Origin: Candidatus Micrarchaeota archaeon
GTDB lineage: Archaea; Micrarchaeota; Micrarchaeia; Anstonellales; Bilamarchaeaceae
Length of the DNA: 64,000 nt
Reading direction: 5' to 3'
Assembly (NCBI GenBank): GCA_016212525.1
Contig: JACRGD010000005.1
Coordinates: 1,300 to 65,299, forward strand
The notes beneath the pieces are model-generated. The model ran no database searches. It saw only the letters and a program-made list of their open reading frames with translations, and had not been told where the DNA came from. Numbering within the stretch: the first letter of the stretch is position 1; each line of letters opens with the position of its first letter. Positions 28,875-62,295 of the stretch are shown piece by piece. Position numbers and translations under genes: made by a program.

Positions 28875-28924
28875 GTACTTTGAACCTGTGGAATGTTTTT
28901 ATATTTTCTCTTTGCTTGCAACTT

Positions 28925-44105: not shown

Positions 44106-45110
44106 CTATTTTTTCAATTCTTTAATTATATTTTGAATCATTTCGCTCGTTTTCGCAGTTCCACCAACATCCTTGGTCTTAATTCCCTTTTCATAAGTTG
44201 CATCTATTGCGTTTTCGAGTTGTTTTGCCTCTGCACTGTGACCTAGATATTCAAGCATCATTGCAGTTGCCCTAAGCATTCCTGTCGGGTTAACGACGTC
44301 CATTCCAGCATATTTAGGTGCAGAGCCATGAACTGGTTCAAATAATGCATGTTTAAGTCCAATATTGGCTGAAGGCGCGACACCAAGACCTCCAATTAGT
44401 GCAGATGCCTCGTCAGAAAGTATGTCTCCAAACAAGTTTGTCGTTACGATAACTTCGAAATCTGTTGGTGATTTGATTAATCGCATGGCTACCGAATCAA
44501 CTAGGGCATCTTCGCAAACTATTTCTTTGTACTCTGATGCCACATTGCGACCAACTTCGAGAAACAATCCATCGCTCTTTCTTAGTACATTTGCCTTGTG
44601 GACCAGTGTGACTTTTTTGAATCCTTTGGCTTTTGCCTCATCAAAAGCGAATCTGACGATCCGCTCGCTGCCTTTGCGGGTTATGACTCGAAGCGACGTA
44701 GCCCGGTCGGCTGTGGCTTCTTCAATTCCGCTATACATGCCCTCAGTATTCTCGCGAACGATGACAAAATTGAGTTTTGGAAATGGTAAATCGACATTTG
44801 GAAGCGAGACAAAAGGCCGCAAATTGGCATACAAATCAAGTGCCTTTCGCAAGCCAATTATCGCACTTTTATAATTCTCTATATTTGGGGGAGTAGTTAC
44901 TGCACAAAAGAGTATCGCATCGCATTCTTTCGCCTTGTTTACTGTTTCGTTTGGTAGTGCAGTTCCGTGTTTTTTGTATGTTTCGTATCCTGCTTCGCCC
45001 TCTATCCATTCTACTTCAACAAGTGCATCGACAACCTTGCGTGCATGTGCCATCAATTCAGGCCCGACTCCATCGCCATTGATGAACATTACTTTCTTTT
45101 TTGGTGTCAT
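44106..45110 (-). CDS. Homoisocitrate / 3-isopropylmalate dehydrogenase family
   Basis: GDGVGPE, LYANLRP, VRENTEG.Y, HKANV, NLFGDILSD, FEPVHGSAP; lys-operon context. Confidence 0.92.
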   Translation of the reverse strand: MTPKKKVMFINGDGVGPELMAHARKVVDALVEVEWIEGEAGYETYKKHGTALPNETVNKAKECDAILFCAVTTPPNIENYKSAIIGLRKALDLYANLRPFVSLPNVDLPFPKLNFVIVRENTEGMYSGIEEATADRATSLRVITRKGSERIVRFAFDEAKAKGFKKVTLVHKANVLRKSDGLFLEVGRNVASEYKEIVCEDALVDSVAMRLIKSPTDFEVIVTTNLFGDILSDEASALIGGLGVAPSANIGLKHALFEPVHGSAPKYAGMDVVNPTGMLRATAMMLEYLGHSAEAKQLENAIDATYEKGIKTKDVGGTAKTSEMIQNIIKELKK

Positions 45111-45604
45111 TTGGCTCCCTCTAGTTCTTCAAGTTTGTGGTGCTTAAGGAATCCCAGTATTCCTCCGTATTCCTTGAACTTTTTGACAATTGGAGAGACG
45201 ACTACGGGTGCAGTTTTGTTCTTTGTTTTGTTTATGATCTGCGTATCTGTGATCTCAATCTGATCTTCTTCAGAAATGGCATCAACAAACTCGCTGGGGG
45301 CAACCAGGGCAACGACTCCGTTGTTTATGCAGTTACGATAGAAAATCCTTGCAAACGACTTTGCAATAATGGCCGAAATTCTATTGGCCTTAAATGCCAT
45401 GACTGCCGTCTCACGAGAAGAGCCGCAGCCAAAGTTTCTTCCTCCTACGACAATATCTCCTGGTTTCACCTGCTTTGCATACTCCGGTCGGTGCTCGATA
45501 AATGCAATTTTTCCCAGTTCTTCTATGTCATTTGTCATGTTATATCTGCCCGGAGTCATCAAATCCGTATTTATAGAATCGCCAAATTTCCAAATTCTCG
45601 TCAT
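45107..45604 (-). CDS. Homoaconitase / isopropylmalate isomerase small subunit
   Basis: WKFGD.INTD..PGRY, NFGCGSSRE, SFARIFYRN. Confidence 0.92.
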   Translation of the reverse strand: MTRIWKFGDSINTDLMTPGRYNMTNDIEELGKIAFIEHRPEYAKQVKPGDIVVGGRNFGCGSSRETAVMAFKANRISAIIAKSFARIFYRNCINNGVVALVAPSEFVDAISEEDQIEITDTQIINKTKNKTAPVVVSPIVKKFKEYGGILGFLKHHKLEELEGAK

Positions 45605-45655
45605 AATAATCATCTCTATTTTCCTTTATTTCTCCATTTCTTTTGCGTTTTCTTT

Positions 45656-46909
45656 CTATCTTTGCATGTATTTTCTTGGATCTGCAATTTTTCCTGCAAT
45701 TGCCGATGCAACTGCTGTTGCCGGAGATGCCAGGTATATTTGCGCCTTGGGTGATCCCATTCTCCCGGTAAAGTTTCGATTGCTGGTGCTGACACACACG
45801 TCATTATCATCAAGAACTCCCATGTGCCGGCCAAGACATGCTCCGCATCCGGGAGAAGTTACTATTGCTCCCGCCTTTGAAAATTCTTCCAAATATCCCG
45901 CACGTAGCGCCTGCTCATAGACCTGTCTGCTTGCGGGAGTTACGAACATTTTTATCCCGTCTGCAACTTTTCTGCCCTTAATCATCTTGTATGCAATTTC
46001 CAAATCCTCAATTCTGCAGTTTGTACACGAACCAAGGAAAACCTGAGTAATTTCGGTTCCCTCGACCTGACTAACCGGAACATCACGGTCTATGTCCGGT
46101 GGTTTAGCGACCGTTGGTTCAATCTTTGAAATGTCATAAGTTAGAACGTCTGCGAATTGGGCATCTGGATCTGATCTAAGGAATTCGAACTGCTGAGCTC
46201 TGCCCTGGATTTCTAAGTATCTTGCAGTCTGCTCGTCTGCCGGGACAATGCCTGTTTTAGCACCCATTTCCGCGCACATATTACATAGGGTCAGCCGCGA
46301 TGGAACGTTCATTTTCGTCAGAGCCTTTCCGCCAAATTCAATGACCTTGTAGTTCGCTCCCTCTGCTGAAAGCTCCTTTGCGATCGAGAGGATGACATCT
46401 TTAGTATAGACTCCAAAATCAAGCGAACCTTCAAGATTAATCTTAATGGTTTCCGGTACTCGAACCCATGCTTTTCCGGTTGCCATTGCTACTGCAGCAT
46501 CGGTTGATCCAAAACCCGCGCAGAAAGCTCCCAACCCGCCGCCTGTTGGCGTGTGGCTGTCGGCTCCCAAAAGGAATGTATTGGGTCGTAGGAATCGTTC
46601 GGCCATGACCTGATGACAGACTCCATCTGTGTATATCTTGATTCCCTGTTCTTTTGCAAATTGTCTGATTTTTGTGTGGAGCGCTGCTGCCTGGGTACTT
46701 GGAGCCGGATATGCATGATCAAAGAAAATATGGATTTTATCCGGATCAAAAACTTTCTTTGCGATCTGATGAAACGGGTCTATTGCCCATGCGCACGTTG
46801 TATCATGCGCCAGAACATAATCGACATTGACTACTGCCAAATCGCCAATCGAAACTTTTCTGCCTGCTTTGGAAGAGAATATTTTTTCCGTTATAGTCTG
46901 TCCGCTCAT
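45656..46909 (-). CDS. Homoaconitase / isopropylmalate isomerase large subunit
   Basis: DH, GVCHQV, GADSHT, GSCTN, PGCGACLG, SNRNF.GRMG. Confidence 0.93.
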   Translation of the reverse strand: MSGQTITEKIFSSKAGRKVSIGDLAVVNVDYVLAHDTTCAWAIDPFHQIAKKVFDPDKIHIFFDHAYPAPSTQAAALHTKIRQFAKEQGIKIYTDGVCHQVMAERFLRPNTFLLGADSHTPTGGGLGAFCAGFGSTDAAVAMATGKAWVRVPETIKINLEGSLDFGVYTKDVILSIAKELSAEGANYKVIEFGGKALTKMNVPSRLTLCNMCAEMGAKTGIVPADEQTARYLEIQGRAQQFEFLRSDPDAQFADVLTYDISKIEPTVAKPPDIDRDVPVSQVEGTEITQVFLGSCTNCRIEDLEIAYKMIKGRKVADGIKMFVTPASRQVYEQALRAGYLEEFSKAGAIVTSPGCGACLGRHMGVLDDNDVCVSTSNRNFTGRMGSPKAQIYLASPATAVASAIAGKIADPRKYMQR

Positions 46910-46970
46910 AAAATTCAACTCTGATGTTCCATTTCGCTCCGTTATTTTCTATTTTCCCCGTTTTGTTTTC

Positions 46971-47222
46971 TTATTTCTGATGACTCTCGAGAACCAGATA
47001 TGTGCTGGTTTCAGTAACGCCCTTACATGCCCGAATTGCCTCGAGAGTGTCGTTCACCTGTTTGACCGAATGCGATTTGACAAGAACCATCAAGTCATAT
47101 GCTCCTGTAAGTTCCCAAACCTGGCTAACTCCCGAAATGGGCATTATGCCTGCAACTATGTCTGCAGTCTTTATTTTTTCCTCTGTTACTACTCCGATGA
47201 TTACGCTTACTGTGTTTTCCAT
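46971..47222 (-). CDS. Stand-alone Lrp/AsnC ligand-binding (RAM) domain
   Basis: V.ELTGAYDL.V, GV.ET.T.LVL; no HTH. Confidence 0.85.
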   Translation of the reverse strand: MENTVSVIIGVVTEEKIKTADIVAGIMPISGVSQVWELTGAYDLMVLVKSHSVKQVNDTLEAIRACKGVTETSTYLVLESHQK

Positions 47223-47243
47223 GTCTCTACACCCATACAAATA

Positions 47244-48326
47244 TTACAATTCAAATTCAAATACGTCTCCTTTCTTTTCCTTTAGTCTTGCAATTGCCTT
47301 TTCTATTTGTGAATCGCTTAGGCCAAGCTTTAATTCAGATGAAAGATATTTGATGACATTTCTGCCAGAATATTCTCCGACAACAAATCTTCTTCTCTGT
47401 CCGACCGTTTCTGGAGAAAATGCCTCGTATGCCTTTCCATCTGATTTAAGAACCGCGCCAAGATGCGTTCCGCCTTTATGTCTAAAGACGCTCTCTCCGA
47501 CCACTGGACTAAATGCATCGCAATAGAGGCCCGTGTAATCTCCAAATAATTTCGAGAGGTGATGCAATCTTGTTACATTAAGGTCCGTTCGCTGATCATA
47601 AAGGACCCGCAATGCCATAGCCACTTCTGCTAGTTTTGGTATTCCTGCCCGCTCGCCCGCGCCATTTATGCATGCGTGTATGCAATTGGCTCCAGCTTCT
47701 ACTCCTGCGAGCGAGTTTGCTAATGCAAGGCCCAAATCATTGTGGCAATGAACGTCCAGATTGGCTTTTGGAACCTGCTGGTGGACTTCCGAGACAAGTG
47801 AATACATTGACGAGGGTGTCATTATTCCAACTGTATCCGTTATCGAAATCCGGTCTGCACCCCGCTCGTGTACTGCCTTGACCATTTCTGCGAGATATTT
47901 AGCATCTGTTCTGGACGCATCCTCGCATGTGAATCGCATCTTTAGCCCGTGGCTCTTGGCATAATCGATCGATTCGCCCGCCCGATTTAGTGCATCTTCC
48001 CTTGTTGTATGTAATTTGTGCTCCAGATGAATGTCGGAAGTCGAGAGAAATATCGCAATCCATTCTGGATCCAGTTTTAGTAAGAGGTCGATGTCGCTCT
48101 TCATCGCTCTCCCATGGAGTATTAGTTTGGCCTTAAGGCTCGCGTCTTTGAGCTCTTTTGCAGTTTCCATCATGCTTTGCGAGACGATCGGTGAGAGCTC
48201 GATAAAATCGACTCCAAGCGCATCTAATTCCGTTCCTATTTTTACTGCCTGCTCCTTGCTAAAGCGAACTTTAGTTGCCTGCTGTCCTTCCCGAAGAGTA
48301 GAGTCTAATATGAGTATCTTGTCCAT
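47244..48326 (-). CDS. Homocitrate synthase
   Basis: LDSTLREGQQ, EDASR, DTVG, HCHNDLGLALAN, GERAG; lys-operon context. Confidence 0.9.
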   Translation of the reverse strand: MDKILILDSTLREGQQATKVRFSKEQAVKIGTELDALGVDFIELSPIVSQSMMETAKELKDASLKAKLILHGRAMKSDIDLLLKLDPEWIAIFLSTSDIHLEHKLHTTREDALNRAGESIDYAKSHGLKMRFTCEDASRTDAKYLAEMVKAVHERGADRISITDTVGIMTPSSMYSLVSEVHQQVPKANLDVHCHNDLGLALANSLAGVEAGANCIHACINGAGERAGIPKLAEVAMALRVLYDQRTDLNVTRLHHLSKLFGDYTGLYCDAFSPVVGESVFRHKGGTHLGAVLKSDGKAYEAFSPETVGQRRRFVVGEYSGRNVIKYLSSELKLGLSDSQIEKAIARLKEKKGDVFEFEL

Positions 48327-49439
48327 TTATTCCTCCTCCTTGCGCACTGCTGCCGTCTGTTTTATGAGATCTTTTAGAACCAAAATCGCCAGTTCATAAT
48401 CTGACCATCGCAGATATTCCCGATCTGTGTGATCGAGTTTTGAATCTCCCGGGCCATAGGCGATAGTGGGTATTTTAGCATCCATCGTTATGTTCATATC
48501 CGCGCTGCCGGATTTCCTTAGATATCTTGGGGTTATCTTCTGACTTCTTGCTGCACCTACCATCCGTCTGACTAGTGGATCGTTAAGCGAAATTTCACAG
48601 CCCGACAGTTGTTCTGTATTTTCGAAATCGATCTTTAGTCCAGCTGGTGCAAGAGAGATGAGAAGTTCACGTATCTCTGTCGTGCTTCTGGTTGGCGGGA
48701 TTCGGACATCAATGAAGAAATCCAGCGAATCAGGAATCGAGTTGAGTGAGTTTTTCTTTCCGTATTCGATGTGGGTTATGTTGAATATTACTGATTCGAA
48801 TGCGTGGTTGCGCGGGAACTCTGTGGAGAGTTTCTGCTGATATTCGACGAGTTTTTCAATGGGATTCTCTGTTTTCATGCCTGCGTGTGCACTCTCCCCT
48901 CTGACGCTAGCGTGAACAAGTATTCTGCCCTTATATGCAATAGTTATTCCATCGCAATTCGATGGTTCTCCATTGACTGCGTATTTTGGTTTTATATATT
49001 TTAGCAGCTCGCGTATTCCTACTGAGATTGGTGCTTCTTCCTCTGTTACTCCAGCGACGATGAGTTTTATTCCCTCTGGCGGATTTGCACTTGCTTCGAT
49101 GTAGCTGGCTACACATCCCTTTGCATCTACCGCACCCCGTCCGCTGATTCCCTCATTATCTGTTTTCACTGGCCAAAATCCAGCTACTGTATCTAAATGA
49201 GAAAATAGTAACAGATCCGCATTTGGGTCTTTTCTATAATCGTAGTTTGCACCTACAACATTTCCTGCGGAGTCGATATCTACATATTTGTATCCCAATT
49301 CTCGCATTCGCTTTGCACAAACTTCTGCCGCTGCCCTCTCTTGCCCAGAAAAACTTTGAGTCTGGACTAATTCTTCGAGGAATCGATGCGAGGCTGGTGA
49401 GCTGTCGTGTTCGTGCTTTCTTTTATCTGTTGCAATCAT
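48327..49439 (-). CDS. lysK: LysW-lysine carboxypeptidase (M20)
   Basis: HLDTV, GRGAVDAKG, EEE, GEPS, SADMN, YGPGDSKLDHT. Confidence 0.9.
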   Translation of the reverse strand: MIATDKRKHEHDSSPASHRFLEELVQTQSFSGQERAAAEVCAKRMRELGYKYVDIDSAGNVVGANYDYRKDPNADLLLFSHLDTVAGFWPVKTDNEGISGRGAVDAKGCVASYIEASANPPEGIKLIVAGVTEEEAPISVGIRELLKYIKPKYAVNGEPSNCDGITIAYKGRILVHASVRGESAHAGMKTENPIEKLVEYQQKLSTEFPRNHAFESVIFNITHIEYGKKNSLNSIPDSLDFFIDVRIPPTRSTTEIRELLISLAPAGLKIDFENTEQLSGCEISLNDPLVRRMVGAARSQKITPRYLRKSGSADMNITMDAKIPTIAYGPGDSKLDHTDREYLRWSDYELAILVLKDLIKQTAAVRKEEE

Positions 49440-50620
49440 GGTAAAACCGACTCCAGTATTCCTAATGCTTCTTCGTAAACTTCCCGCGTTGTATTAAGAG
49501 GCGGGAGCATTCGAAGTGTCGTATCTCCGGCAGTCAAAATCAAAAGACCCTTTGCCTGTGCTGCCTTTACGATTGGTGTACTCTCAACTTTGAGTTCAAG
49601 CCCGATAAAGAGGCCTTTGCCACGAACCTGAACGATCGATGGTTTTCGTGTCATCATCTGCTGGAGTTTTTGGGAAAGCCACAAGCCATTCTCATCTGCT
49701 CGCTCAAGTAATTTTTCATCTTCAATTGCCTTTATTGTAGCATTCGCAGCAGCGCATGCAAACGGATTTCCTCCGAAGGTCGATCCATGCTCAAGGTTCT
49801 TAAAGACGCAAAATTCCTCGTTTGCAATTGCTGCTCCGATTGGAACTCCGCCTCCAAGTCCTTTAGCCAAAGTAACGACATCTGGATAAACTCCTACATT
49901 TTCAAATGAAAAGAACTTACCTGTTCGTCCCATACCTGCCTGAACCTCGTCAAAGACAAGCAGCGTTCCTTTTTGGCTACAGATCTCGCGGGCTGCGCTT
50001 AGGAATGCAACATCTGCAGGCCGTATTCCTCCTTCGCCCTGAATCACTTCGAGAAATACCGCTGCCGTTTCTTCTGTTACTGCATTTCTAAGGCCCTCAA
50101 TATCGTTCATTCTGATCCTTGTAATTGGTCCGATCAGAGGTTCGAATCTCTCTCGATATTTTAGTTTAAATGTTAATGCAAGACTTCCGGCCGTTCTGCC
50201 ATGAAACCCATTCATCGCTGCAACTAGTGCCTTGCGGCCTGTTTTGGCACGGGCAAGTTTAATTGCGGCTTCGTTTGCCTCTGTTCCAGAGTTGCAAAGA
50301 AAAATCTTTCCGCTTTTTCCGCTTGCACTTCGCCAGCGTGATTCGAGACTCTCTAGTAATCTTGTTCTCTCTCCATTTGCAAATGCTTCATTGCAGGTTA
50401 TCATTTTTGATGCCTGCTCCGCGAGTGCCTGTTTTAAGCCCGGGTGGTTGTGGCCAAGAATTGCGACGCCGATACCACTTGTAAAGTCGATGTATCTTTT
50501 GCCCTCTACGTCCCAGACTATGCTTCCCTCTCCGCGCGAGAGTGCGATGTCCCTTTTCTTATAGACTCCCATTTCTAATTTTGTTTCCCGCTCAACTAGA
50601 GATGCGTTTGTTTCGTTCAT
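49436..50620 (-). CDS. lysJ: LysW-aminoadipate semialdehyde aminotransferase (class III PLP)
   Basis: NSGTEANE, FHGRT, QGEGG, DEVQ.G.GRTG, AKGLGGG. Confidence 0.9.
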   Translation of the reverse strand: MNETNASLVERETKLEMGVYKKRDIALSRGEGSIVWDVEGKRYIDFTSGIGVAILGHNHPGLKQALAEQASKMITCNEAFANGERTRLLESLESRWRSASGKSGKIFLCNSGTEANEAAIKLARAKTGRKALVAAMNGFHGRTAGSLALTFKLKYRERFEPLIGPITRIRMNDIEGLRNAVTEETAAVFLEVIQGEGGIRPADVAFLSAAREICSQKGTLLVFDEVQAGMGRTGKFFSFENVGVYPDVVTLAKGLGGGVPIGAAIANEEFCVFKNLEHGSTFGGNPFACAAANATIKAIEDEKLLERADENGLWLSQKLQQMMTRKPSIVQVRGKGLFIGLELKVESTPIVKAAQAKGLLILTAGDTTLRMLPPLNTTREVYEEALGILESVLP

Positions 50621-50625
50621 AAATA

Positions 50626-51498
50626 TCAATTCTCCTCGCTATTTCCAATTTCTTTGCGATTGGCAGTTATGTGCGTTCCGGATCCGTCAAGTGCTTTGCT
50701 TAGTGGCGCCTCGGTCTTGCCATTCCCAATTACTACTCTCTGGACTCCGCCATCAATTGCTTCTGCGCAGGCGAACAATTTCTTTTTCATTCCGCCAGAT
50801 GCCTTGCCACCGCCTGCAATTTCTATTGCCTCTGTTAGCTGGGCTCGAGTGAGCGAACTGACTAAATCGTTCGGGAAGTTTTTGTAATATCCATCAACAT
50901 CTGTGAGCATGACTACTGTATTGGCCTTTAGTTCAGATCCAATCTTTGCCGCAAGCCGATCTCCATCTATGTTGAGTAGGCTCGTTTCACCAAGTGCCAG
51001 TGCTGCAACTACCGGAACATATCCTTCGCGAAGCAATGTGCGCAACAGTCCACCATTTATCTTTTCAATTTTGCCTGTGTAATCATCCCTTACGATTTTC
51101 TGTTTTCCGCTTTCGTCAACTGATGTGATTATCTTCTGCTTTGCCTCGATCAATCTACCATCACAGCCCGAGAGCCCGATTGCATTTACTCCTGTTGTAT
51201 TGAGCGAGACTACCAGCCTGGAATTCGCTTCTCCCCTTAGTGCAAGTGTATATGCTTGGAGGACCTCTGCATTGGTGTAACGCGATTTGAATCCACCTGG
51301 CGAAGTGATGAATTTGGGTGTTATGTTAAGTCGCTTGCAGAGTTCATTGATCTGTGCGCTTCCGCCATGAACAACTACTATCGAGTATTTTGATTGTAAT
51401 GATGCAATGTCCTTTGCAATTTCCTCCGGCTGTTGCGCAGTGCTGCCACCAATCTTGACGACTATAATTGGGCGTTCGTTCGTTTGTGTGTTTGTCAT
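50626..51498 (-). CDS. lysZ: LysW-aminoadipate kinase
   Basis: VVKIGG, VHGGS, SPGGFKSRYT, NIDGDR, GGMKKK. Confidence 0.92.
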   Translation of the reverse strand: MTNTQTNERPIIVVKIGGSTAQQPEEIAKDIASLQSKYSIVVVHGGSAQINELCKRLNITPKFITSPGGFKSRYTNAEVLQAYTLALRGEANSRLVVSLNTTGVNAIGLSGCDGRLIEAKQKIITSVDESGKQKIVRDDYTGKIEKINGGLLRTLLREGYVPVVAALALGETSLLNIDGDRLAAKIGSELKANTVVMLTDVDGYYKNFPNDLVSSLTRAQLTEAIEIAGGGKASGGMKKKLFACAEAIDGGVQRVVIGNGKTEAPLSKALDGSGTHITANRKEIGNSEEN

Positions 51499-51509
51499 GT
51501 GCATTACAC

Positions 51510-52562
51510 CTAAAGTGGGTGGAACCCCGGCTGCCATAGTCCCATTTTTTCATCTAAGCCAAACATCAGATTAAAATTCTGGATTGCCTGTCCACCTGAG
51601 CCTTTGACCAGGTTGTCTATGGTCGACATGACAATCACTCTGCTGCGCTCAGGATCTATCTCGAATCCAATATCTGCAAAGTTGCTTCCAACGACACATT
51701 TTGGTTCTGGATATCGATAAAGCGTGTCCTTGTCCTTGACAAGTCTGACAAACGGTGATTTCGAATAGAATGATCGATATGCCTTCCACAAGTCGAGGTC
51801 TTTCGTTCCGGCTGTATTGAGCCTTGCGTGGACTGTACTTAGAATCCCTCGAACCATTTCCACGGCGTGAGGAGTCATACCAACGGAAACTTTTGATCCT
51901 GCGATCTCGCTTAATTCCTGCTCGATTTCTGCAGTGTGCCGATGGCCGCTTGGCTTATATGATCGAACTGTTCCCTGCCGCTCTGGGTGGTGAGTTGAAA
52001 GATCAAATGCAGCACCGCTTGCCGAGCTGCCGATCTTGGAATCTGCTATTATATTACTATTATCTATAAGTCCTGCTTTGATCAGAGGCGCCGTTCCAAG
52101 TATGATCGATGTGGCAAGGCAGCCGGCACATGCGACTAACTGGGCCTTCTTTATCTCTTCTCGATGCAACTCAGGAATTCCATAAACTGCCTTTGGTAAA
52201 AGTTCCGGGTGCGGGTGCTCCTGGTAATATTTTGCATATGTGTTCTTATCATGAATCCTAAAGTCCGCTGATAAATCGATGATTTTGACTCCGGTTTCGA
52301 GATACTGCTTCACAAAACCCGCAGAAATCTTGTGCGGCAGGCAAAGAAAAAGTGCATCGATGTCTGTGTTGAGTTCCTTTACTGGTACAAAGTTCGCCGA
52401 TGTAAATCCCCGAAGAGTCGGGTTAAGTTTTGTTACTGGAGTTCCTGCAAACCTCTCGGATGTAAGTTGCTTTACTTCCATCTCCGGGTGCATTAGTGCC
52501 CATCTAAGAAGCTCGCCTCCAGTGTATCCGGATGCGCCTACAATTGATATGTCATATGCCAT
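51510..52562 (-). CDS. lysY: LysW-aminoadipyl-phosphate reductase
   Basis: GASGYTGGEL, DLSADFR, GC, HHPER, HRHTAEI, DNLVKG..GQA. Confidence 0.93.
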   Translation of the reverse strand: MAYDISIVGASGYTGGELLRWALMHPEMEVKQLTSERFAGTPVTKLNPTLRGFTSANFVPVKELNTDIDALFLCLPHKISAGFVKQYLETGVKIIDLSADFRIHDKNTYAKYYQEHPHPELLPKAVYGIPELHREEIKKAQLVACAGCLATSIILGTAPLIKAGLIDNSNIIADSKIGSSASGAAFDLSTHHPERQGTVRSYKPSGHRHTAEIEQELSEIAGSKVSVGMTPHAVEMVRGILSTVHARLNTAGTKDLDLWKAYRSFYSKSPFVRLVKDKDTLYRYPEPKCVVGSNFADIGFEIDPERSRVIVMSTIDNLVKGSGGQAIQNFNLMFGLDEKMGLWQPGFHPL

Positions 52563-52577
52563 AAATATCACGCTTGA

Positions 52578-53429
52578 TTATTTCTTTGACCTCTTTACGA
52601 AATACTCGACCATTTTGCCAGGTATATCCGCGCCGGTTGGCTCGACCGAGTTTCTAAATTCTGTCGTGTGGTTGACTTCATGAACGACCAGTCTTCCGTC
52701 TCCAGTTTCCATCATATCTACGCCGTAAATTCCCTCGCCAAAGACGTTTGCCGCTTTAAGTGCAAGTTCGCGAATTTCGCTTGTAACTGGACAGTTGGAT
52801 GCTGTTCCGCCTCTGCCTGTATTGGTTATCCAGCCCGATTTTTCCGTTGAAGTTCGGTATATTGCCCCGACACACTCATCGCCAATCACAAAGACTCGCA
52901 TGTCTCGTCCGGGTTTGTTAATGTGCTCCTGTAAATAGTAGACTTTCTGGAATGCATGGCCCATCTCTTCGCGGGATTCGAGTTCTGCATCCAGCGCCTC
53001 ATCATCATTTAATTTGTGAACTAATCTCGCCCAGCTTCCAAAAACTGGTTTCATGACTACTGGGAATCCGAGCTTCTTTGCTGCAGCCTTTGCTGCATCT
53101 GGAGTAAAAGCTCCGAATGTTTTTGGAGTTGGGACTCCTGCCTTTCCAAGAAGCACTGATGCGAGGAATTTATCGCCGCATAGTTTGTGTGCCTTATATG
53201 GATTGCACACGAATGTTCCCATCTGCTCGAGGTAGAATGACGAGTAAAGAGTTCTGGCATAAGACGATGATCTCTGAAGAACTCCATCGTATTCTTTCTT
53301 CGAGGCAGTCAGTTCCATCATAAGTTCGCTGTCAAAGACTCGCTCGAGAGTTATGCCTCTTTTAGTGGCACTCTCAAAGATCATTTTGTTTTCTGGAGTA
53401 AGAACCGTAAATAGCATTGCAAGACGCAT
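52578..53429 (-). CDS. lysX: Alpha-aminoadipate-LysW ligase (RimK-type ATP-grasp)
   Basis: KPVFGSW, KPGRDMR, AIYR, WITN, EVNHT.EF.NS. Confidence 0.93.
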   Translation of the reverse strand: MRLAMLFTVLTPENKMIFESATKRGITLERVFDSELMMELTASKKEYDGVLQRSSSYARTLYSSFYLEQMGTFVCNPYKAHKLCGDKFLASVLLGKAGVPTPKTFGAFTPDAAKAAAKKLGFPVVMKPVFGSWARLVHKLNDDEALDAELESREEMGHAFQKVYYLQEHINKPGRDMRVFVIGDECVGAIYRTSTEKSGWITNTGRGGTASNCPVTSEIRELALKAANVFGEGIYGVDMMETGDGRLVVHEVNHTTEFRNSVEPTGADIPGKMVEYFVKRSKK

Positions 53430-53845: not shown

Positions 53846-54250
53846 ATGGATCAAATCGATACGAACATACTTAAAATTCTCAAGTTAAACTCGCGCTCTT
53901 CCAATGTCGAATTGGCCCGGGCGATTAATCTTACTGAAGGTGCAGTGCGCAACCGGATCGATCGATTGGTCAAAACCGGCATAATTACCAAGTTCACGAT
54001 CGAAACTTCCTCTTCTGCCGCTCTCTCTGCAATCGTAATGATCAGGGCCAAAGCCGAAACCAAACTAATGATGTCTGAGATTTCCAAATCAGGCCTTGCA
54101 AAAGAATCCTATGAAATTTCAGGTGATTTCGATGGCTGCGTGATTATTGAGGGCGGATCGATGGAAGAACTCGATGAAAAAGTAGATAAAATAAGAAAAA
54201 TTAGTTCGGTTGCAGAAACAAAGACATTCATCTCGTTTAAGAGATGGTGA
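53846..54250 (+). CDS. Lrp/AsnC regulator, LysM-like
   Basis: MDQIDTNIL..L..NSR....ELA..I.LTEGAVRNRI; YEISGDFD; DKIR...V..TKT. Confidence 0.9.
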   Translation: MDQIDTNILKILKLNSRSSNVELARAINLTEGAVRNRIDRLVKTGIITKFTIETSSSAALSAIVMIRAKAETKLMMSEISKSGLAKESYEISGDFDGCVIIEGGSMEELDEKVDKIRKISSVAETKTFISFKRW

Positions 54251-55636: not shown

Positions 55637-58600
55637 TTATTGCACTTCTTGTTCCAATCTAGCAACTATTCTTGCTATTTCTGATCTATATTGCGCTACT
55701 CTTCTATCAACAGTCAGTGTTGCACTTCCTACTGCTATTACTCGTATTCCTTCATATACTGTGCTCATGCTCAGTCGGTTTCTTTCTAATCTGTGTTTTG
55801 TCTCTACTAGGTCTGCTATTATTATGTCTAAATCTGCAGAAGGAACTGTTCTTAGGGCCGCTCTTATAGCTCGTTCCTCTTCTGCTCTCTCTCTATTTAA
55901 GGCCGCTCCTCTTCTGCTCTCTTCCCATCCTGCACTTTCTCTACTTACAACCGGTCCTCCTCCTTGAATGTTCATCGTTCCTGCCTCTCTCAATAATCTT
56001 TGTTCTTCGGGAGTTAAATCTCTTGGTGCGGGTGTCGGTGTTACTGCTACTCTTGCTCGTGCTTCAAGTTGTGCTGCTCTGTCTCTAAGTCTATCAAGTT
56101 GTTCGACAAATCCCGCGCGGGTTGTTTCTCGTCCTGCTATTGGTCCTTTTTCTGCATCTGTTGCATGTAGTTGATCGAGACTCGAAATAACTCCTGAAAT
56201 ATTTCCTCTATAGACTGTTAGTGAAGTTCCGATTTCGCCTTCTCGTGTTACTCTGTGACTGGTTGCATCGCGACTTCCGATCGTTCTGCGCACGGCCGTG
56301 AGTCGTCTTAATGCCGCAGCCCGATCTGTAGCGATAAGTCGTTCAATTGCATCAAGTTCATTCTGAGCGACCTGGAGATCCCTTCTTGCCTGGGCTTCTC
56401 TTCTTTCAAATGTTGCATCGCGCGTAGTTACTAATTGCGTTACTTGTTCAACTCTTCTCTGTTCTGCCCGTTCTGCTGCACTTGGTCTTCTTGGTGCGGG
56501 TGTCGGTTGCTCCTGTGGCGTCTGCACTGTAGTTGGTTCAGGTCCAAGTATGTCCCTTGCGGTGCTTTCGAGTCTAAATCTTAAAGTTGCAAGTGCTTGG
56601 TCTGGGCCAATTCTTCTACTTAATGTTTGGAGTGCTTCTGCGAACTGTCGATTATTTCGATACGTCGCTGTGAGTTCCATATTATCATTATGTACCCCAT
56701 TGAGTATGTCTGTAACCTGATCCGCTACTGCAGGTGTTCTCAACTGCTCGAGAGTCAGCGTTCCTATATTCGCTGTAGTTACTGTGAACTGTCTTGGTGC
56801 TGGTCTAGTCTGTGCGACTGGGGGTGCGGGTGTCGGTGTCTGTACTGCTACTCTTGCACTTGTTTCTCCTTGTGCTGCTTCGCCAGTTTGACCTGAGGGA
56901 ATTACTATTCCTCTGCTGCGGTTGACTACCTCTCCCGCTGGAATTGGTTGTCCTCTTGCGGCTGCAAGGCTTACTGGGTCTTGAGTTGGCACTGGTGCAG
57001 TTGCTTCTCTTGCGGCCTCTTCTCGTCTTCGTTCCTGAGCCACTGCGATTCTTTGTTCGGCATCTAGTAAGTCTGATCTTAAGGTATATCCGCTCGAAGC
57101 AGGTCTGGTGCGATCAAACGGTTCACGTAGTGCAACCTCAGGAATCCTAAGGGGTGGTTCTTCTGGTCGTATTGTTGCCTCCCGTCTTGCTTGCGGGACT
57201 GTCTGCTGGTCTGTGGCGGCAATCATATTGGTAGTTACTCCTCTTGAAAGATTTGCAATACGGACTGAAATCGGATCATTCTGCGGGATCTGGAGTGCGA
57301 CTCTAAGTTCCTCCAAACCCTGAACAAGTGGAACGCGGCCCATCTGGTTTCTCTGTTGTATATTCCAGGTATTCCAGAAGTTAGTGTTCTGACTCATTTC
57401 TCTAAATAGTGATTCTCCCTGGGCAAGCTGTTCTGAATTTGCTCCTCCTTCTCTCCATCTATACTGGAGATAAATTAGATCTGCCCGAACGAGTCCTTCT
57501 CTTTGGCGTTCCTCAAATTCTGCCTGACTTGTAGGCGGTCTGACCATTGTCATTACTCTTTCAGGTGGATTAAGTCTCGCCATATCATTTTCTCCAGGCA
57601 GATAATTTCCAGCGACTGCTGTTGATGGCTGCCGGTCTGCGTTTGCAGTTGCCTGAGCCACCAATCTGTCTCGCTCTCCAGTTAATCGCAGGAGTTCGCT
57701 GCTTCGTCCATCGACAAAATGCTGCGCCTCGTTAATTGCCATTGCAACATTTCCGTTTGTGCGTCGCAATAATGTCATTGCATCTGAACTCAATTCTGCG
57801 TTTGGATTGTGTAGTCTTGCTTCCAATTCTTCTCTGGTATGCGTGGCTCGTTGGGCTATATGTGTTTCCTCAAGTACGTGCCTTTGGGCATCCAGTTCCG
57901 CTATCGCTCCCTGGGAATCAAATTGGCCATTTACCACGTGTCTGCGTATAAGTGAGACAACTGAACCTGAAGGAAATCTGGATATGAGTGTTGCAGGACT
58001 CCAATTCTGTGCTCCCGCTTCCATGAATGTGTTTTCGAGCGTTCTTAGTTGGTCCATTGTATTTTGATATGTCCAATTTGGATCTCCTGCGACAACCCGT
58101 GCGCCAAATCGCTGGGCAGTTGTGAAAATTTGTTGTGCATATTCCTCGGAATGGACCGTTGCCGGTGTAATTCTCACTTCCTGAGTCGGATGCATTGGTT
58201 GTATCTGAGGAAGCGGTGGCCTAGTTCTAGCTGTGACATGAAAATCTACCAATCCTGCGTTTTCAAGTTCGTGCCTGAGTCCTGAAATTGTATGATTAAG
58301 ATTTTGTATGGGTGAGTGAAAATCTCTGGTTCGGCTTCCCTGGCCTACCATTTGCGCGATTCTCATTTCTTCTGCATTTATCGGATCGTTTCTGACTCCC
58401 TGCCCCAAATCTCTTAGTCTTTCCAATTCATTAAGAACAAAAACCGCTCTCTGATTTCTGGTTTCGTTTGGTCCCATGTATATTCCGTTTGCCTGCTGGC
58501 TCTGGTATACCATTCGCCATTGGTCGCTAAGGTAATTTCGTGCCTCTGGGGCAAGGGCCGGTTGTGTCTGGCCACTTAGTATGTTGGTAACTACGGTATT

Positions 58601-58645
58601 GATCCGGTCTGCATTCCGATCTATTTCTGTTTGTCCACCTACCAT
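55637..58645 (-). CDS. Large hypothetical Arg/Gln/Thr-rich, lysine-depleted protein
   Basis: 1002-aa ORF with AGGTGA SD, 11 bp after AMP phosphorylase; PTPAP repeats. Confidence 0.85.
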   Translation of the reverse strand: MVGGQTEIDRNADRINTVVTNILSGQTQPALAPEARNYLSDQWRMVYQSQQANGIYMGPNETRNQRAVFVLNELERLRDLGQGVRNDPINAEEMRIAQMVGQGSRTRDFHSPIQNLNHTISGLRHELENAGLVDFHVTARTRPPLPQIQPMHPTQEVRITPATVHSEEYAQQIFTTAQRFGARVVAGDPNWTYQNTMDQLRTLENTFMEAGAQNWSPATLISRFPSGSVVSLIRRHVVNGQFDSQGAIAELDAQRHVLEETHIAQRATHTREELEARLHNPNAELSSDAMTLLRRTNGNVAMAINEAQHFVDGRSSELLRLTGERDRLVAQATANADRQPSTAVAGNYLPGENDMARLNPPERVMTMVRPPTSQAEFEERQREGLVRADLIYLQYRWREGGANSEQLAQGESLFREMSQNTNFWNTWNIQQRNQMGRVPLVQGLEELRVALQIPQNDPISVRIANLSRGVTTNMIAATDQQTVPQARREATIRPEEPPLRIPEVALREPFDRTRPASSGYTLRSDLLDAEQRIAVAQERRREEAAREATAPVPTQDPVSLAAARGQPIPAGEVVNRSRGIVIPSGQTGEAAQGETSARVAVQTPTPAPPVAQTRPAPRQFTVTTANIGTLTLEQLRTPAVADQVTDILNGVHNDNMELTATYRNNRQFAEALQTLSRRIGPDQALATLRFRLESTARDILGPEPTTVQTPQEQPTPAPRRPSAAERAEQRRVEQVTQLVTTRDATFERREAQARRDLQVAQNELDAIERLIATDRAAALRRLTAVRRTIGSRDATSHRVTREGEIGTSLTVYRGNISGVISSLDQLHATDAEKGPIAGRETTRAGFVEQLDRLRDRAAQLEARARVAVTPTPAPRDLTPEEQRLLREAGTMNIQGGGPVVSRESAGWEESRRGAALNRERAEEERAIRAALRTVPSADLDIIIADLVETKHRLERNRLSMSTVYEGIRVIAVGSATLTVDRRVAQYRSEIARIVARLEQEVQ

Positions 58646-58656
58646 CGCAATTCACC

Positions 58657-60219
58657 TCAGCGTATGCTCCCAAGAAGCATTTTTCTCATCTCAATTGGTT
58701 CTAAATCCGCCAGCGCCTTTATTGCGAAATCCAGTTTCGCCTCGCTTTCGGCATAAATTGTAAATAATTTGTCGCCGCGTTCGACCCGATCGCCCCTGAT
58801 TCGATGAAGCAGGACTCCTGCTCCCTTGTCCTTTGGCGATCCTGCGATTCGTGCAATCTTGGCCATTGTTTTGTTGTCAATATGGAAAATGCTTCCACTC
58901 ACATCTGCGATTATTGTGTGAGTGTATTTGCCAATGGGAATATCGGTGCGTTTGAAGTTTTTGTTACCGCCCTGGAGTTCTATGATTTCCCTGAATTTGG
59001 AAAGTGCCTTTCCATTTGTAATGAGATCTTCTGCAACCTTGTAGCCTTTTCCTACCGGAACTTTTCCGCACATTTCAAGAATCTTTCCTGCCATGAGTGA
59101 ACTCTTATGTCTCAAATCGTCTGGTCCATCTCCCCCTAATACGTCTAAAACATCAAGGCATTCGAGGCCAGGTCCAATTCCATTACCTACTGGTTCTGCG
59201 CCGTCAGTTATTATTACTTCTATCTTGAGTCCGAGTTTCTCTCCCACTCGTAGGAAATGTTTTGCGAGTTCATTGCCGCGCTCGACGTATGGAATTTTGA
59301 CTCCGCGTCCCACCGGAATGTCAATAAGTACATATTGTGCACCGACACTCTTCTTCTTTCCAAGAATGCTTGCGAGAAGCATTCCTTCTGGGTCTAAACT
59401 TAGCGGGTGTCTTACTCTAATGAGCTTATCGTCAACCGGAGCGAGTTTCATTCCGCCACCCCAGACCATTGCACCTTTTGATTTGAGGACTATTTCCTTT
59501 AGTTCGTCTATGTTGAACGTTACGTCTGCAAGAACTTCTACGGTGTCTGCCGTCCCTGCTGCTGAAGTTATCGATCTTGAAGATGTTTTTGGGATGTAGA
59601 TTCCTGCTGCTGCAATTATCGGTACTACTACCATTGTTGTTCGATTTCCCGCAACTCCTCCGATACAATGCTTATCTACTATTGGCTTTTTGCCTAAGTT
59701 AAGTTTCTCTCCTGATTCCATGGTAGCATGAGTAAGTGAAATAATTTCATCATCAGAAAGTCCATTTATGTATGCCGCAGTAATCCAGGCCGAGGTTTCG
59801 ATTTCGCTTAATTTATCTTCCATAATTTCTCTGACTATTGTATGAATTTCCTCATCATTTAGCGTTCCTTTATCCAGCTTCTTTTTTATGTAACTAATTG
59901 ATGCGGGTTGATTGAGGTGCAAAATTTCAATTGAGTCGCCTTTTTTGATTCCATTATTTGCTGCCATGTCTTTGTATATTCCAACTTCTCCAGGTCTGAT
60001 TGATTCATGGCCTACATCTACAATTGCAACCAGTTTCTTGTTTTTGATGGTCAACTCTGTTCTAAAGCCGCTATATATATCGTGTTCTTTGGCTTCATCA
60101 TCATTAAGGACTATGATGTTTTTTCCAGCACTTATGTCAAGTACTTTTGCTTTTACTAAGTATTTCTTGAGTCTCCAGACATCTACTTTTTTGACTTGTT
60201 TTTCGTTATATTCAACCAT
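58657..60219 (-). CDS. AMP phosphorylase
   Basis: DKHCIGGVAGN, PKTSSRSITSAAGTAD, SLDPEG; N-terminal extension typical of the archaeal enzyme. Confidence 0.95.
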   Translation of the reverse strand: MVEYNEKQVKKVDVWRLKKYLVKAKVLDISAGKNIIVLNDDEAKEHDIYSGFRTELTIKNKKLVAIVDVGHESIRPGEVGIYKDMAANNGIKKGDSIEILHLNQPASISYIKKKLDKGTLNDEEIHTIVREIMEDKLSEIETSAWITAAYINGLSDDEIISLTHATMESGEKLNLGKKPIVDKHCIGGVAGNRTTMVVVPIIAAAGIYIPKTSSRSITSAAGTADTVEVLADVTFNIDELKEIVLKSKGAMVWGGGMKLAPVDDKLIRVRHPLSLDPEGMLLASILGKKKSVGAQYVLIDIPVGRGVKIPYVERGNELAKHFLRVGEKLGLKIEVIITDGAEPVGNGIGPGLECLDVLDVLGGDGPDDLRHKSSLMAGKILEMCGKVPVGKGYKVAEDLITNGKALSKFREIIELQGGNKNFKRTDIPIGKYTHTIIADVSGSIFHIDNKTMAKIARIAGSPKDKGAGVLLHRIRGDRVERGDKLFTIYAESEAKLDFAIKALADLEPIEMRKMLLGSIR

Positions 60220-60252: not shown

Positions 60253-61206
60253 CTATTCAATGATTTTTGGATCGTCTATTATTTTCCTGCCTAATTTCTC
60301 GCTTGCAATGCTAAAGAGCGATTGGGGTGGAATGACTCCTGCTTCTGTTATATATCCACTTATGTATCTGGCAGCAGTTGCCTCAAAGGCCGGATTGCGA
60401 ATTTTTAATTTCTTAGGTGCATCTTCCCAAACTTCCCTCGGGTCTCGCTCTTCGATTTTTTCACGTGTTCCAAAGAGCGTCATTGGGTTATATTTGAAGA
60501 GTTCTGCAGCGCAGTAGAATGAGACATCATTCATGTAGGCAATGTGTGCAAGTGTTGATGTTCCGATTTTGTTTATCAGGTCGCCTCGGGAAGTTATCGA
60601 GTCCGCGCCTACAATTACTATGTCTGCTTTTTTCATCTGATGTGCCATTGCGCCATCGACCGATAATGTTACGTCTATTCCAGCGGCAACAAGTTCGGTT
60701 GCTGTTGTTCTACCCTGGTATCTGGGTCTGGTTTCAAAGCAAATGACTGAAAACTTTTTGCCCTCTTTCTTGGCTTCTTTAATTACTTTTGTTGATGTCG
60801 ATGAATGACAATGTGTTAGGACAACCGCATCATCTGGAATCAGTGCGGCTCCATGTCTGGCAAGTTTTTGGGCATCCGCATCCATTTTTGAGAGCAGATT
60901 CTCTTTTTTCTTTCCAATTTCTAAGGCCAGTTTCGATTTTTCCATCGAACTGTTGCTTCGAATCTGCATTAGTGTGAATCTGCAAACATCTTCGAGCAAA
61001 TTTCGCATCATCGGTTCGGTTGGTCTGGATTTGATTAGTGCGTCTGCAATGATGAGAAGATGCTTATAAAGTGCGTCTGAGTTTTTGGCCGTGCTGTTTT
61101 GGGCTTCAATTGCAAATGCTTCGAGTGCTGATTTTGCAACATTTCTTGCGCCTTGTATTTTGAGTGATTTAATGTCGGCTATGATACGCCTGACTTCCGT
61201 GTGCAT
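60253..61206 (-). CDS. Ribose-1,5-bisphosphate isomerase (eIF-2B family)
   Basis: IQGA, RPTEP, THCHS, ETRP.YQG, GAD, NKIGT, NPAF; adjacent to AMP phosphorylase. Confidence 0.92.
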   Translation of the reverse strand: MHTEVRRIIADIKSLKIQGARNVAKSALEAFAIEAQNSTAKNSDALYKHLLIIADALIKSRPTEPMMRNLLEDVCRFTLMQIRSNSSMEKSKLALEIGKKKENLLSKMDADAQKLARHGAALIPDDAVVLTHCHSSTSTKVIKEAKKEGKKFSVICFETRPRYQGRTTATELVAAGIDVTLSVDGAMAHQMKKADIVIVGADSITSRGDLINKIGTSTLAHIAYMNDVSFYCAAELFKYNPMTLFGTREKIEERDPREVWEDAPKKLKIRNPAFEATAARYISGYITEAGVIPPQSLFSIASEKLGRKIIDDPKIIE

Positions 61207-61257
61207 AGACTGCTAATCGATCTAAGCTATATAAAGCTTTCTTACTCAATTTTGGTT

Positions 61258-62295
61258 ATGATACTTCCATTGTTATTTGATTTGCGTCTTGTTGAGCGAA
61301 GAGCCGAGGGCATTTCCCTAAACACTGCAATTGCGCCGCTGCCTCCGCTTATTCAGGGTTATTTAACTTCCAATATCTCTCCTTCCTTGTCTTTAGAGGA
61401 ACGAACTCGAATAATTCTCCAGCGATTTGACGGCCTTTGCAGAAATGCTCTTGGTGAATCTAATCCTCATCAAAGTCAGGCCGACGCTAACTTGAGAAAA
61501 AGCTTTTTGAAAAATCATCTGGGTGATGATTATCTTGCAAACTTAAGGCAGATCAGAACCCAACTTGTTGCTCTTACTCCTGCATTAGCCCGAACAGAAT
61601 CTCCTTTTGAGGTTCGCGATCATCAGGCTGCCCTGGCTCGGACTCCCCATCCAGATCTTTCGAGAACTGTTCCAGAGCCGGTAGCTCAAGGGCCTTCCGG
61701 GGCTGTTCATTTTACTAACCTTGAAAGAATTGCTACTTCTGTGGGTGTGCAATTGCCTCCGGACGGGACTGCTCAGGAGCAGCTGGAATTTCTGCGTCAG
61801 AAGCTAAGAACTATGGAACGTGATCTTATTGGCTTTCCATTACACCATCACCACGATCCAGATGCAGTTCGATTGCGCACATCTCTACATAATCGCAGCG
61901 ATCTTGCACAGGATCGTGTCCGAAGAGCGCAGCGAGAATTGCGACGCCTGGGAGATGAGGCCACTGCTTCAGAAACGGTGCTGAGCCCTACTTCGATTAC
62001 TATTTCGAGAGCTGAAATGGATCGATCAAATCGTCAACATCAGGTTGTGGCTGCTTTGGGGATGCAAGAGGATTCGGAGCAAACCGCGATCGTTCGTGAA
62101 CTTGAGCGGGTTCAGACTGCCCTTCGTGTCAGAACAATAAAAATCGGCTCGCAAAATGTTCCTCTTGAAACTGCGATCCGTGAACACCCAGAGCGGTTTG
62201 ATCCAATGATAAGGCGAATCGTCGAGCAGCAGGGTGGATTGGCTCAAGCGAGAACGTTTGTCGATGAATCGCTCCAAGCATTGAGGTCGAGTTAA
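61258..62295 (+). CDS. Hypothetical Arg/Gln-rich, lysine-poor helical protein
   Basis: 345 aa from ATG 61258; TATATAAA at 61228. Confidence 0.75.
   Translation: MILPLLFDLRLVERRAEGISLNTAIAPLPPLIQGYLTSNISPSLSLEERTRIILQRFDGLCRNALGESNPHQSQADANLRKSFLKNHLGDDYLANLRQIRTQLVALTPALARTESPFEVRDHQAALARTPHPDLSRTVPEPVAQGPSGAVHFTNLERIATSVGVQLPPDGTAQEQLEFLRQKLRTMERDLIGFPLHHHHDPDAVRLRTSLHNRSDLAQDRVRRAQRELRRLGDEATASETVLSPTSITISRAEMDRSNRQHQVVAALGMQEDSEQTAIVRELERVQTALRVRTIKIGSQNVPLETAIREHPERFDPMIRRIVEQQGGLAQARTFVDESLQALRSS

Follow-up and report, generated by a model that had tools for sequence, protein, structure and literature searches.

A lysine-purged orphan protein of a Micrarchaeota archaeon belongs to an undescribed, fast-evolving and largely exported class of lysine-poor proteins

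Long polypeptide stretches devoid of lysine, termed lysine deserts, have been defined for components of the eukaryotic ubiquitin-proteasome system as well as for bacterial proteomes (in parts of PMC10665810, PMC10169902 and PMC13696103). As criteria, a section of the last of these sources gives a lysine-free stretch of at least 150 residues or of at least 50% of the protein, and for prokaryotes it reports lysine deserts in GC-rich Actinobacteria, with GC bias as an open confounder (PMC13696103). The same source also mentions the lysine-poor catalytic A chains of AB toxins that traffic through the endoplasmic reticulum, read as ubiquitin evasion in a hypothesis of Hazes and Read from 1997, and an enrichment of lysine deserts in Mycobacterium phage proteins, proposed there as an adaptation to host pupylation but confounded by high GC and untested (PMC13696103, in part). 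Here we describe P0001, an orphan protein encoded on the minus strand at positions 55637..58645 of a 64,000-nucleotide stretch of Candidatus Micrarchaeota archaeon DNA (the window). We assign P0001, as a new member, to a so far undescribed class of lysine-purged, fast-evolving and largely exported proteins; the export and the target of P0001 itself as well as the cause of the purge are what we infer. Full-text literature searches, which covered articles but not their supplementary files, found no description of lysine depletion in DPANN archaea or Micrarchaeota.

Like the described lysine deserts, P0001 contains a very long lysine-free stretch, retains arginine and appears to be largely disordered or helical, and the proposed meaning, the avoidance of a lysine-directed tag, is the same. 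However, the known deserts are those of cytoplasmic proteins whose own organism operates the tagging system, whereas here a whole class of mostly exported orphans is affected in an AT-rich and lysine-rich genome, a class which is absent from sampled parts of congeners of similar GC content. The nearest functional precedent, on which the initial annotation had already drawn, is provided by the A chains of AB toxins, which the class resembles in the use of arginine for lysine, in export, in the action in another cell (presumed for P0001) and in that the lysines still left do no harm. Unlike in the A chains, no catalytic toxin domain was detected in P0001, about fifty unrelated proteins instead of one chain are concerned, the presumed partner is a prokaryote and not a eukaryote equipped with endoplasmic-reticulum-associated degradation and ubiquitin, and delivery is presumptive. 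The nearest prokaryotic precedent is the Mycobacterium phage case, where the proteins of an invader lose lysine, supposedly through a lysine-directed tag of the host; in contrast to that case, GC bias is excluded for the archaeal class, and the host is a presumed one.

P0001 comprises 1002 codons followed by a TAA stop and contains 2 lysines, 121 arginines (73 of them encoded by AGA) and no cysteine. Both lysines, residues 833 and 950, are encoded by AAA and lie in the contexts DAEKG and ETKHR, so that the longest lysine-free run is formed by the first 832 residues (83% of the length). The initial annotation, which had described two lysines, no cysteine, abundant arginine and roughly 830 lysine-free N-terminal residues, is accurate in every one of these details. 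It is equally right that neighbours on the same strand are lysine-rich; AMP phosphorylase has 55 lysines and 21 arginines, and ribose-1,5-bisphosphate isomerase 30 lysines and 18 arginines. The lysine share of all lysines and arginines, K/(K+R), is 0.016 in P0001. The binomial probability of finding at most 2 lysines among 123 such residues is 2e-45 at the genome share of 0.6 and still 4e-13 at a share of 0.25; chance as the cause of the deficit is therefore excluded. With 832 of 1002 residues in a lysine-free run, P0001 constitutes a lysine desert by the published definition, and its deficit is not explained by the composition of the genome (41% GC, median K/(K+R) 0.60).

The deficit is not confined to one protein. 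For the whole assembly (G000; 1.47 Mb in 10 contigs, 41% GC, 89.6% complete), open reading frames (ORFs) were assigned by a crude longest-non-overlapping rule instead of a gene finder, which yielded 1313 ORFs of at least 100 and 938 of at least 200 amino acids. Among the latter K/(K+R) is distributed bimodally and not continuously, with 24 ORFs between 0 and 0.05, 9–12 in every one of the four bins that follow and a main mode at 0.55–0.70; the proteome-wide comparison suggested in the initial annotation thus separates a largely orphan, lysine-poor class, and P0001 falls into the low mode. Values below 0.2 are found for 52 of the 938 ORFs, which account for 36,152 of 384,308 residues (9.4%). 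The class includes giants of 4493, 3192, 2859 and 1839 amino acids with only 8, 3, 4 and 9 lysines, respectively, and the longest of its proteins rank among those most strongly depleted (K/(K+R) 0.011–0.020 for 2859–4493 amino acids). Size itself is not the cause, since a 2543-residue ORF with an N-terminal hydrophobic segment (window 28832-36463, plus strand) carries a normal 123 lysines and 83 arginines, and a 2167-residue signal-bearing protein elsewhere in the genome 218 lysines. When 36 class members were scanned against Pfam, 33 remained without a family, and the other three turned out to be a subtilase, a GDSL lipase and a tetratricopeptide repeat (TPR) protein, all with N-terminal hydrophobic signals. 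P0001 shares the features by which the class is recognised, namely a K/(K+R) below 0.1, a codon use native to the genome, as shown for the class, and the lack of a known family.

A comparison of 33 class members with 774 ordinary ORFs revealed near-identical synonymous codon fractions, the GC content at third codon positions (GC3) being 0.32 and 0.37, respectively. Lysine drops from 7.6% in ordinary proteins to 0.3% in the class, while asparagine is unaffected (4.3% versus 4.6%); arginine rises from 4.7% to 8.9%, and the sum of both basic residues falls from 12.3% to 9.2%. Cysteine is also lower in the class (0.25–0.74% versus 1.0–1.6%). Class genes contain 0.19 AAA per 100 codons in the reading frame but 1.8 and 2.1 in the two other frames. 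The native codon use, the undepleted asparagine and the frame-specific loss of AAA show that it is the amino acid which is depleted; the deficit is neither an effect of GC content nor the mark of recently acquired foreign DNA. In an AT-rich genome, where one transition suffices to turn AGA into AAA, it must be upheld by selection.

The lysines that survive in P0001 point in the same direction. The same genome encodes a paralogue, P0002 (G000:C5:163666-166134; 822 amino acids, 3 lysines, 66 arginines), which shares the last 290 residues with 38–41% identity (E values of 1e-32 to 2e-36). In the alignment of both proteins (A1, 41% overall identity), Lys833 (56147..56149, minus strand, AAA) belongs to the invariant block LHATDAEK and Lys950 (55796..55798, minus strand, AAA) to the likewise invariant K-H-R. 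The surviving lysines would accordingly be those that are needed, the pattern expected if lysine is selected against and retained solely where it is required. Selection against lysine, as proposed in the initial annotation with base bias set aside, is thus well supported by native codons, by the frame-specific depletion of AAA, by the invariant lysines of the paralogue and by the purge of the exported part described below.

An N-terminal hydrophobic segment is present in 29 class members, in many of them followed by a lipobox-like cysteine or an A-x-A-Q site. Ahead of this segment lysine makes up 5.4% of the residues (30 of 551; K/(K+R) 0.32) and behind it 0.48% (87 of 18,252; K/(K+R) 0.057), corresponding to a Fisher odds ratio of 7.8 (p 1e-13). 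Lysine is tolerated in the cytoplasmic-side or cleaved piece and purged from the exported piece, which speaks against translation, the supply of lysine or nucleotide content as explanations. The outer loops predicted for 141 ordinary multi-pass membrane proteins are as rich in lysine (K/(K+R) 0.61) as the inner ones (0.62) and as the outer loops in the congener G024 (0.62). Conserved signal-bearing proteins show a shift in K/(K+R) of only -0.075 relative to their G024 counterparts, compared with -0.02 for cytoplasmic ones, and many lipobox proteins of the genome have a K/(K+R) of 0.25–0.7. As ordinary outer loops and lipobox proteins are unpurged, the hazard is not simply a matter of being outside the membrane. 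In the simplest reading, the purged, lineage-specific exported set goes elsewhere, to or into a partner cell; a purge acting on the exported part but sparing housekeeping surface loops is in keeping with a destination other than the surface of the archaeon itself.

The genus spans 36–62% GC, and solely genomes of similar GC content are fair controls; G054 with 62% GC, for which the ORF rule and K/(K+R) are uninformative, was therefore dropped. In 400 kb of G024 (40% GC), none of 280 ORFs of at least 200 amino acids has a K/(K+R) below 0.2, compared with 52 of 938 in G000 (Fisher p 2e-6), and the same holds for the 139 such ORFs in 200 kb of G049 (36% GC). Four of 131 ORFs fall below 0.2 in 200 kb of G002 (39% GC), all between 0.09 and 0.16, and 13 of 247 in 391 kb of G009 (39% GC), where the distribution is again bimodal. 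In the sampled parts, the lysine purge is hence patchy and not genus-wide. Class members also diverge rapidly: eight of 16 lysine-poor ORFs of G009 have a match in G000, with a median identity of 34%, versus 230 of 283 ordinary ORFs with a median of 56%. The 4493-residue giant and its G009 counterpart of 4212 residues are 42% identical, and four of the 8 lysines of the former are aligned to lysines. Members of the subtilase family (Peptidase_S8) were detected in 4 of 40 genus genomes. All copies in AT-rich genomes have few lysines: those of G000 (two, L129 and L133; 7–8 lysines, 60–65 arginines) and G009 (four, L130 and L134-L136; 5–11 lysines, 54–64 arginines) are lysine-poor, as is the partial one of G055 (L131; 3 lysines, 38 arginines), whereas that of the GC-richer G018 (L132) has a normal lysine content (46 lysines, 37 arginines).

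Searches for relatives of P0001 itself returned nothing beyond the genome. A phmmer search against 1.84 billion representative sequences matched P0001 and P0002 alone, and a word-indexed search of 5.8 billion proteins with whole-length P0001 (candidates of 551–1754 amino acids) solely P0001. Whole P0001 had no match outside G000 among 40 relatives, nor had a C-terminal profile built from alignment A1 in 98 other genomes of the family. The AMP phosphorylase gene is present in 39 of 40 genus genomes, with full-length matches of 68–80% identity, and the DNA behind it was read in 20 of them over about 6.5 kb (2.5–5.3 kb at contig ends). A long lysine-poor ORF follows directly in G009 only, the closest genome by AMP phosphorylase (80%). 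This ORF, P0003, codes for 760 amino acids with 1 lysine and 104 arginines and overlaps the upstream stop codon. By BLASTP its similarity to P0001 is not significant (best E 1.1); weak collinear similarity is seen for residues 12-93 of P0001, and shuffling gave marginal support at the N-terminus (z 2.6; 10 of 500 shuffled sequences scored as high) and at the C-terminus (z 3.2; 4 of 300). P0003 is likely orthologous to P0001 by position, and the slot behind AMP phosphorylase holds, in two species, lysine-purged proteins which are either unrelated or too far diverged for their kinship to be recognised. With regard to the lysine content of orthologues, which the initial annotation had named as informative, no sequence orthologue was found, and both the paralogue (3 lysines in 822 residues) and the positional counterpart (1 in 760) are as lysine-poor as P0001. 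AMP phosphorylase identity places the AT-rich genomes G000 and G009 nearer to GC-rich members of the genus (76–78%) than to other AT-rich ones (70–74%; loci L033-L052, L089-L128 and L159-L178).

Some class members share short N-terminal motifs. Among the first 40 residues of the 1313 ORFs, MVG[GP] turned up in five, none of which has a K/(K+R) above 0.034: P0001, the giants of 4493 and 3192 residues, a protein of 822 residues and one of 292 residues. A second motif, M[FLIV][FLIV]FQ (M-x-x-F-Q), was found in 6 of 1313 ORFs, all with a K/(K+R) of at most 0.083. The codons used for the tags differ between genes, so that the tags are conserved as peptides and not as DNA, and good Shine-Dalgarno sites precede the MVG starts. 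Past the first five residues the tagged proteins do not align with each other. The 4212-residue G009 counterpart of the largest giant likewise starts with MVGP. In G002, two moderately lysine-poor ORFs (contig C1, about 121420-122688 and 194786-195235 of 200 kb; L175 and L178) start with MVIGR and MVGRP and thereby resemble the MVG tag. The class has two candidate export features, Sec-type signal peptides and the short tags, and P0001 carries a tag in the form of MVGG (58634..58645, minus strand). This tag may signify export, and we hypothesize that the tags mark a Sec-independent route for class members devoid of signal peptides.

The remaining architecture of P0001 is derived from structure predictions. 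Residues 5-460 (57266..58633, minus strand) form a mostly helical N-terminal region with three short strands at 133-186 in a low-confidence AlphaFold2 (AF2) model. A linker rich in proline, threonine, arginine and alanine follows (residues ~465-625; 56771..57253, minus strand), which is predicted to lack regular structure except for one helix at residues 530-542 (predicted local distance difference test, pLDDT, of 26–39). The C-terminal module common to P0002 (residues 701-1002; 55640..56545, minus strand) is modelled as a helical bundle with one beta-hairpin. While the whole-length single-sequence AF2 model is unusable (mean pLDDT 42) and suggests helices and an unstructured stretch rich in proline, threonine and arginine, the model of the C-terminal module built with the paralogue is usable (mean pLDDT 77). 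A Foldseek search of the PDB with the latter gave no match at E values of 0.001 or below (best E 0.4). In the VIA-wide comparison of its residues 20-171, the best Z was 13.3, with rows down to 9.2, at a helical background of about 13; the resemblance to spectrin-repeat or syntaxin-Habc-like bundles is that of generic three-helix bundles and lies within this background. P0001 has no family in Pfam, PHROGs or PADLOC and a single 11.7-bit chance match in NCBIfam, nothing significant among PDB sequences (best E 0.98), no usable match in the ESM Atlas and no detectable tandem repeats. A catalytic toxin domain was found neither with four hidden Markov model libraries nor among PDB sequences, the N-terminal 700 residues being represented by a low-confidence model only. 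P0001 might perhaps be a non-enzymatic, elongated scaffold or tether-like protein.

Upstream of P0001 and on the same strand lies the AMP phosphorylase gene (TIGR03327, 612 bits), separated by 11 nt. A Shine-Dalgarno-like GAGGTGA read from the sequence (58652..58658, minus strand) is placed 6 nt 5' of the P0001 ATG and overlaps the TGA stop of AMP phosphorylase (58657-58659). The short gap suggests that both genes are co-transcribed and translationally coupled. Two further ORFs with few lysines are found in the window. One codes for 130 amino acids (42027-42419, minus strand; 0 lysines, 16 arginines) and starts with MLIFQ, which makes it one of the six M-x-x-F-Q ORFs; the other, a putative ORF of 364 residues with an N-terminal hydrophobic segment (61201-62295, plus strand; 5 lysines, 41 arginines), overlaps the start of the ribose-1,5-bisphosphate isomerase gene on the opposite strand by 6 nt. 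Neither has an NCBIfam family. Directly upstream of P0002 (G000:C5:166435-169425, minus strand), a lysine-rich protein of 996 residues with a signal peptide (45 lysines, 19 arginines) is encoded, possibly an S-layer protein. A single ThiF-type E1 copy scored over the cut-off in G000, which is uninformative.

Several processes other than a hazard in a partner cell could deplete lysine. If the proteins were made under scarcity of lysyl-tRNA, lysine would be spared above all in the very long ones, as the strong purge of the longest members seems to indicate, and neither dihydrodipicolinate synthase (DHDPS) nor the LysA-type decarboxylase of the diaminopimelate (DAP) pathway was found in the 89.6%-complete genome. 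However, the window carries a LysW-type aminoadipate pathway (44106-53429, minus strand, and 53846-54250, plus strand) which supersedes the missing enzymes. It includes LysX (TIGR02144, 300 bits) and [LysW]-aminoadipate kinase, both over curated cut-offs, besides ArgC/LysY-like, LysJ-like and LysK-like proteins, homocitrate synthase, both homoaconitase subunits, homoisocitrate dehydrogenase and a LysM-like regulator. DHDPS (PF00701) was found in none of the 40 genus genomes, whether or not they have the class, while the same search matched 13 of 14 control genomes; the genus thus appears to rely on the LysW route. Moreover, lysine is tolerated in the signal-peptide n-region specified by the very same mRNAs, and other giants are lysine-rich, so that lysine sparing is disfavoured and must be called very improbable. 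The gene for P0001 is located about 1.4 kb from the LysM-like regulator; as this regulator comes immediately after the AMP phosphorylase gene in relatives, the adjacency looks ancestral and not functional. Even less credible, and likewise disfavoured, is a compositional relic, in which the genes come from, or date back to, a GC-rich genome of the kind found in this genus (56–62% GC). The class genes have indeed 45–50% GC in a genome of 41%, their products are rich in alanine, arginine and proline, and the close relatives by AMP phosphorylase identity are GC-rich. But synonymous codons are those of the genome, with a GC3 lower than that of ordinary genes; asparagine is undepleted while lysine drops 25-fold; genes diverging so fast would have erased an unselected deficit; and the subtilase homologue of the GC-richer G018 has 46 lysines beside 37 arginines. 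That the ORF of P0001 is not protein-coding is a practically negligible alternative. It would account for the missing homologues outside the genome, the missing family and the poor whole-length model, but has to cope with 1002 open codons at 41% GC, the Shine-Dalgarno-like site 6 nt upstream, the native codon use, the frame-specific depletion of AAA and a paralogous module with invariant blocks that is modelled at a pLDDT of 77.

Other alternatives accept selection on the protein but differ in its cause. Arginine might be wanted instead of lysine avoided, on account of guanidinium chemistry in contacts with anionic polymers or lipids, in membrane crossing in the manner of arginine-rich peptides or in phase behaviour. 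Lysine and arginine are described as differing in non-covalent interactions and phase behaviour (PMC13696103, in part), arginine nearly doubles in the class (4.7% to 8.9%), and P0001 is predicted to be helical or disordered with many stretches of glutamate, arginine, glutamine and alanine. Yet the sum of lysine and arginine falls, which indicates loss of lysine and not gain of charge; a demand for arginine would not push lysine 25-fold down to 0.3% where AGA and AAA differ by one transition in an AT-rich genome; globular enzymes such as the subtilase and the GDSL lipase are included; and surviving lysines occupy invariant positions, as expected if lysine is actively removed. We regard this explanation as unlikely. 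Somewhat harder to defend is self-protection, whereby the archaeon exports a lysine-directed enzyme of its own, the lysine-poor subtilase or a lysine-modifying domain of a giant, and the co-travelling proteins have lost their lysines. The lysine-poor subtilase is found in G000, G009 and G055, genomes in which the purge is seen, but lysine is retained in the outer loops and lipoproteins of the archaeon itself, which a secreted enzyme would likewise reach, and G002 has some lysine-poor ORFs yet no match to the subtilase family. A general extracellular hazard, be it a reactive compound present in the habitat or a foreign protease, that strips lysine from everything outside the membrane is improbable. 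It would be in line with a purge confined to the part beyond the hydrophobic segment and with the reduced cysteine of the class, but not with undepleted outer loops of ordinary membrane proteins (0.61 versus 0.62), the lysine retained by many lipobox proteins and by the signal-bearing 2543-residue giant, or the sampled parts of same-genus genomes of similar GC content that are free of the class.

We favour, at a probability of about 0.45, that P0001 is a native, fast-evolving orphan of an exported, host-directed set under continuing selection against lysine, the hazard residing at or in a partner cell. In this scenario, P0001 would be the product of a real native gene, an elongated protein composed mostly of helices and an unstructured linker, and one of about 40–50 proteins of the genome that have been stripped of lysine, with arginine mostly taking its place. 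The purge would be maintained by purifying selection that acts on the completed protein and leaves only indispensable lysines in place. The class may represent the exported, host-directed repertoire, many members of which would leave the cell by way of Sec-type signal peptides or lipobox-like sequences, while those without hydrophobic signal, P0001 included, might use the short tags MVG[G/P] or M-hydrophobic-hydrophobic-F-Q for a Sec-independent route. At or inside the partner cell lysine would be a liability, most likely by lysine-directed inactivation, either through conjugation of a ubiquitin-like or other modifier and subsequent degradation or through lysine-specific proteolysis. The effector idea of the initial annotation is partly supported: selection against lysine and a separate, largely orphan lysine-poor class have held up, whereas delivery into a host cell and a hazard by SAMP, Urm1 or ubiquitin-type conjugation or by acetylation are presumptive. 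A more far-reaching version, that some groundwater DPANN archaea devote about a tenth of their coding capacity to a host-directed proteome purged to escape a lysine-directed, ubiquitin-like or proteolytic defence of a prokaryotic partner, and that the five-residue tags mark an undescribed Sec-independent export or transfer route for members devoid of signal peptides, is at present rather doubtful.

Several observations weigh against the favoured scenario. P0001 lacks the N-terminal hydrophobic core of a Sec/Tat signal peptide: in a custom crude script, used instead of SignalP, no 11-residue window within the first 70 residues reached a mean Kyte-Doolittle value of 1.9 and no later 19-residue window one of 1.6. 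Many exported lipoproteins of the genome have normal lysine, so that two destinations have to be assumed. No obvious secretion machinery was seen beside four class clusters, where ORF lists inspected by eye contain housekeeping genes. The tag motifs were defined after viewing the data, which overstates any p-values attached to them; if the fourth residue is disregarded, MVG is also found at or close to the start of 5 ordinary ORFs; the G009 positional counterpart of P0001 begins with MTGVEF and that of the 822-residue MVGG protein with MVLPLVGQ; and the M-x-x-F-Q tag was not seen in the 391 kb of G009. ORF calling, signal detection and topology prediction relied on crude custom scripts, and relatives were sampled over 200–400 kb each, with counts that are non-independent through relatedness. 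Finally, the sequencing runs listed for the organism are groundwater-metagenome DNA, with no RNA run among them.

To our knowledge, the ways in which DPANN archaea act on their hosts are largely obscure, and the proteins presumed to mediate the interaction are orphans which homology cannot sort. The near-absence of lysine from exported parts in an AT-rich genome with a lysine-rich proteome may serve as a signature by which a host-interaction repertoire can be picked from sequence alone, and the lysine-poor class supplies defined candidates for proteomic and localisation studies. The genome also offers a cleaner case of selected lysine loss than those in print, as GC bias is excluded and samples of congeners with similar GC content act as natural controls. 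If the hazard is indeed a lysine-directed defence of the partner, it would constitute an unrecognised layer of conflict between prokaryotes, and the purge would be a prokaryote-versus-prokaryote counterpart of the ubiquitin evasion ascribed to AB toxins.

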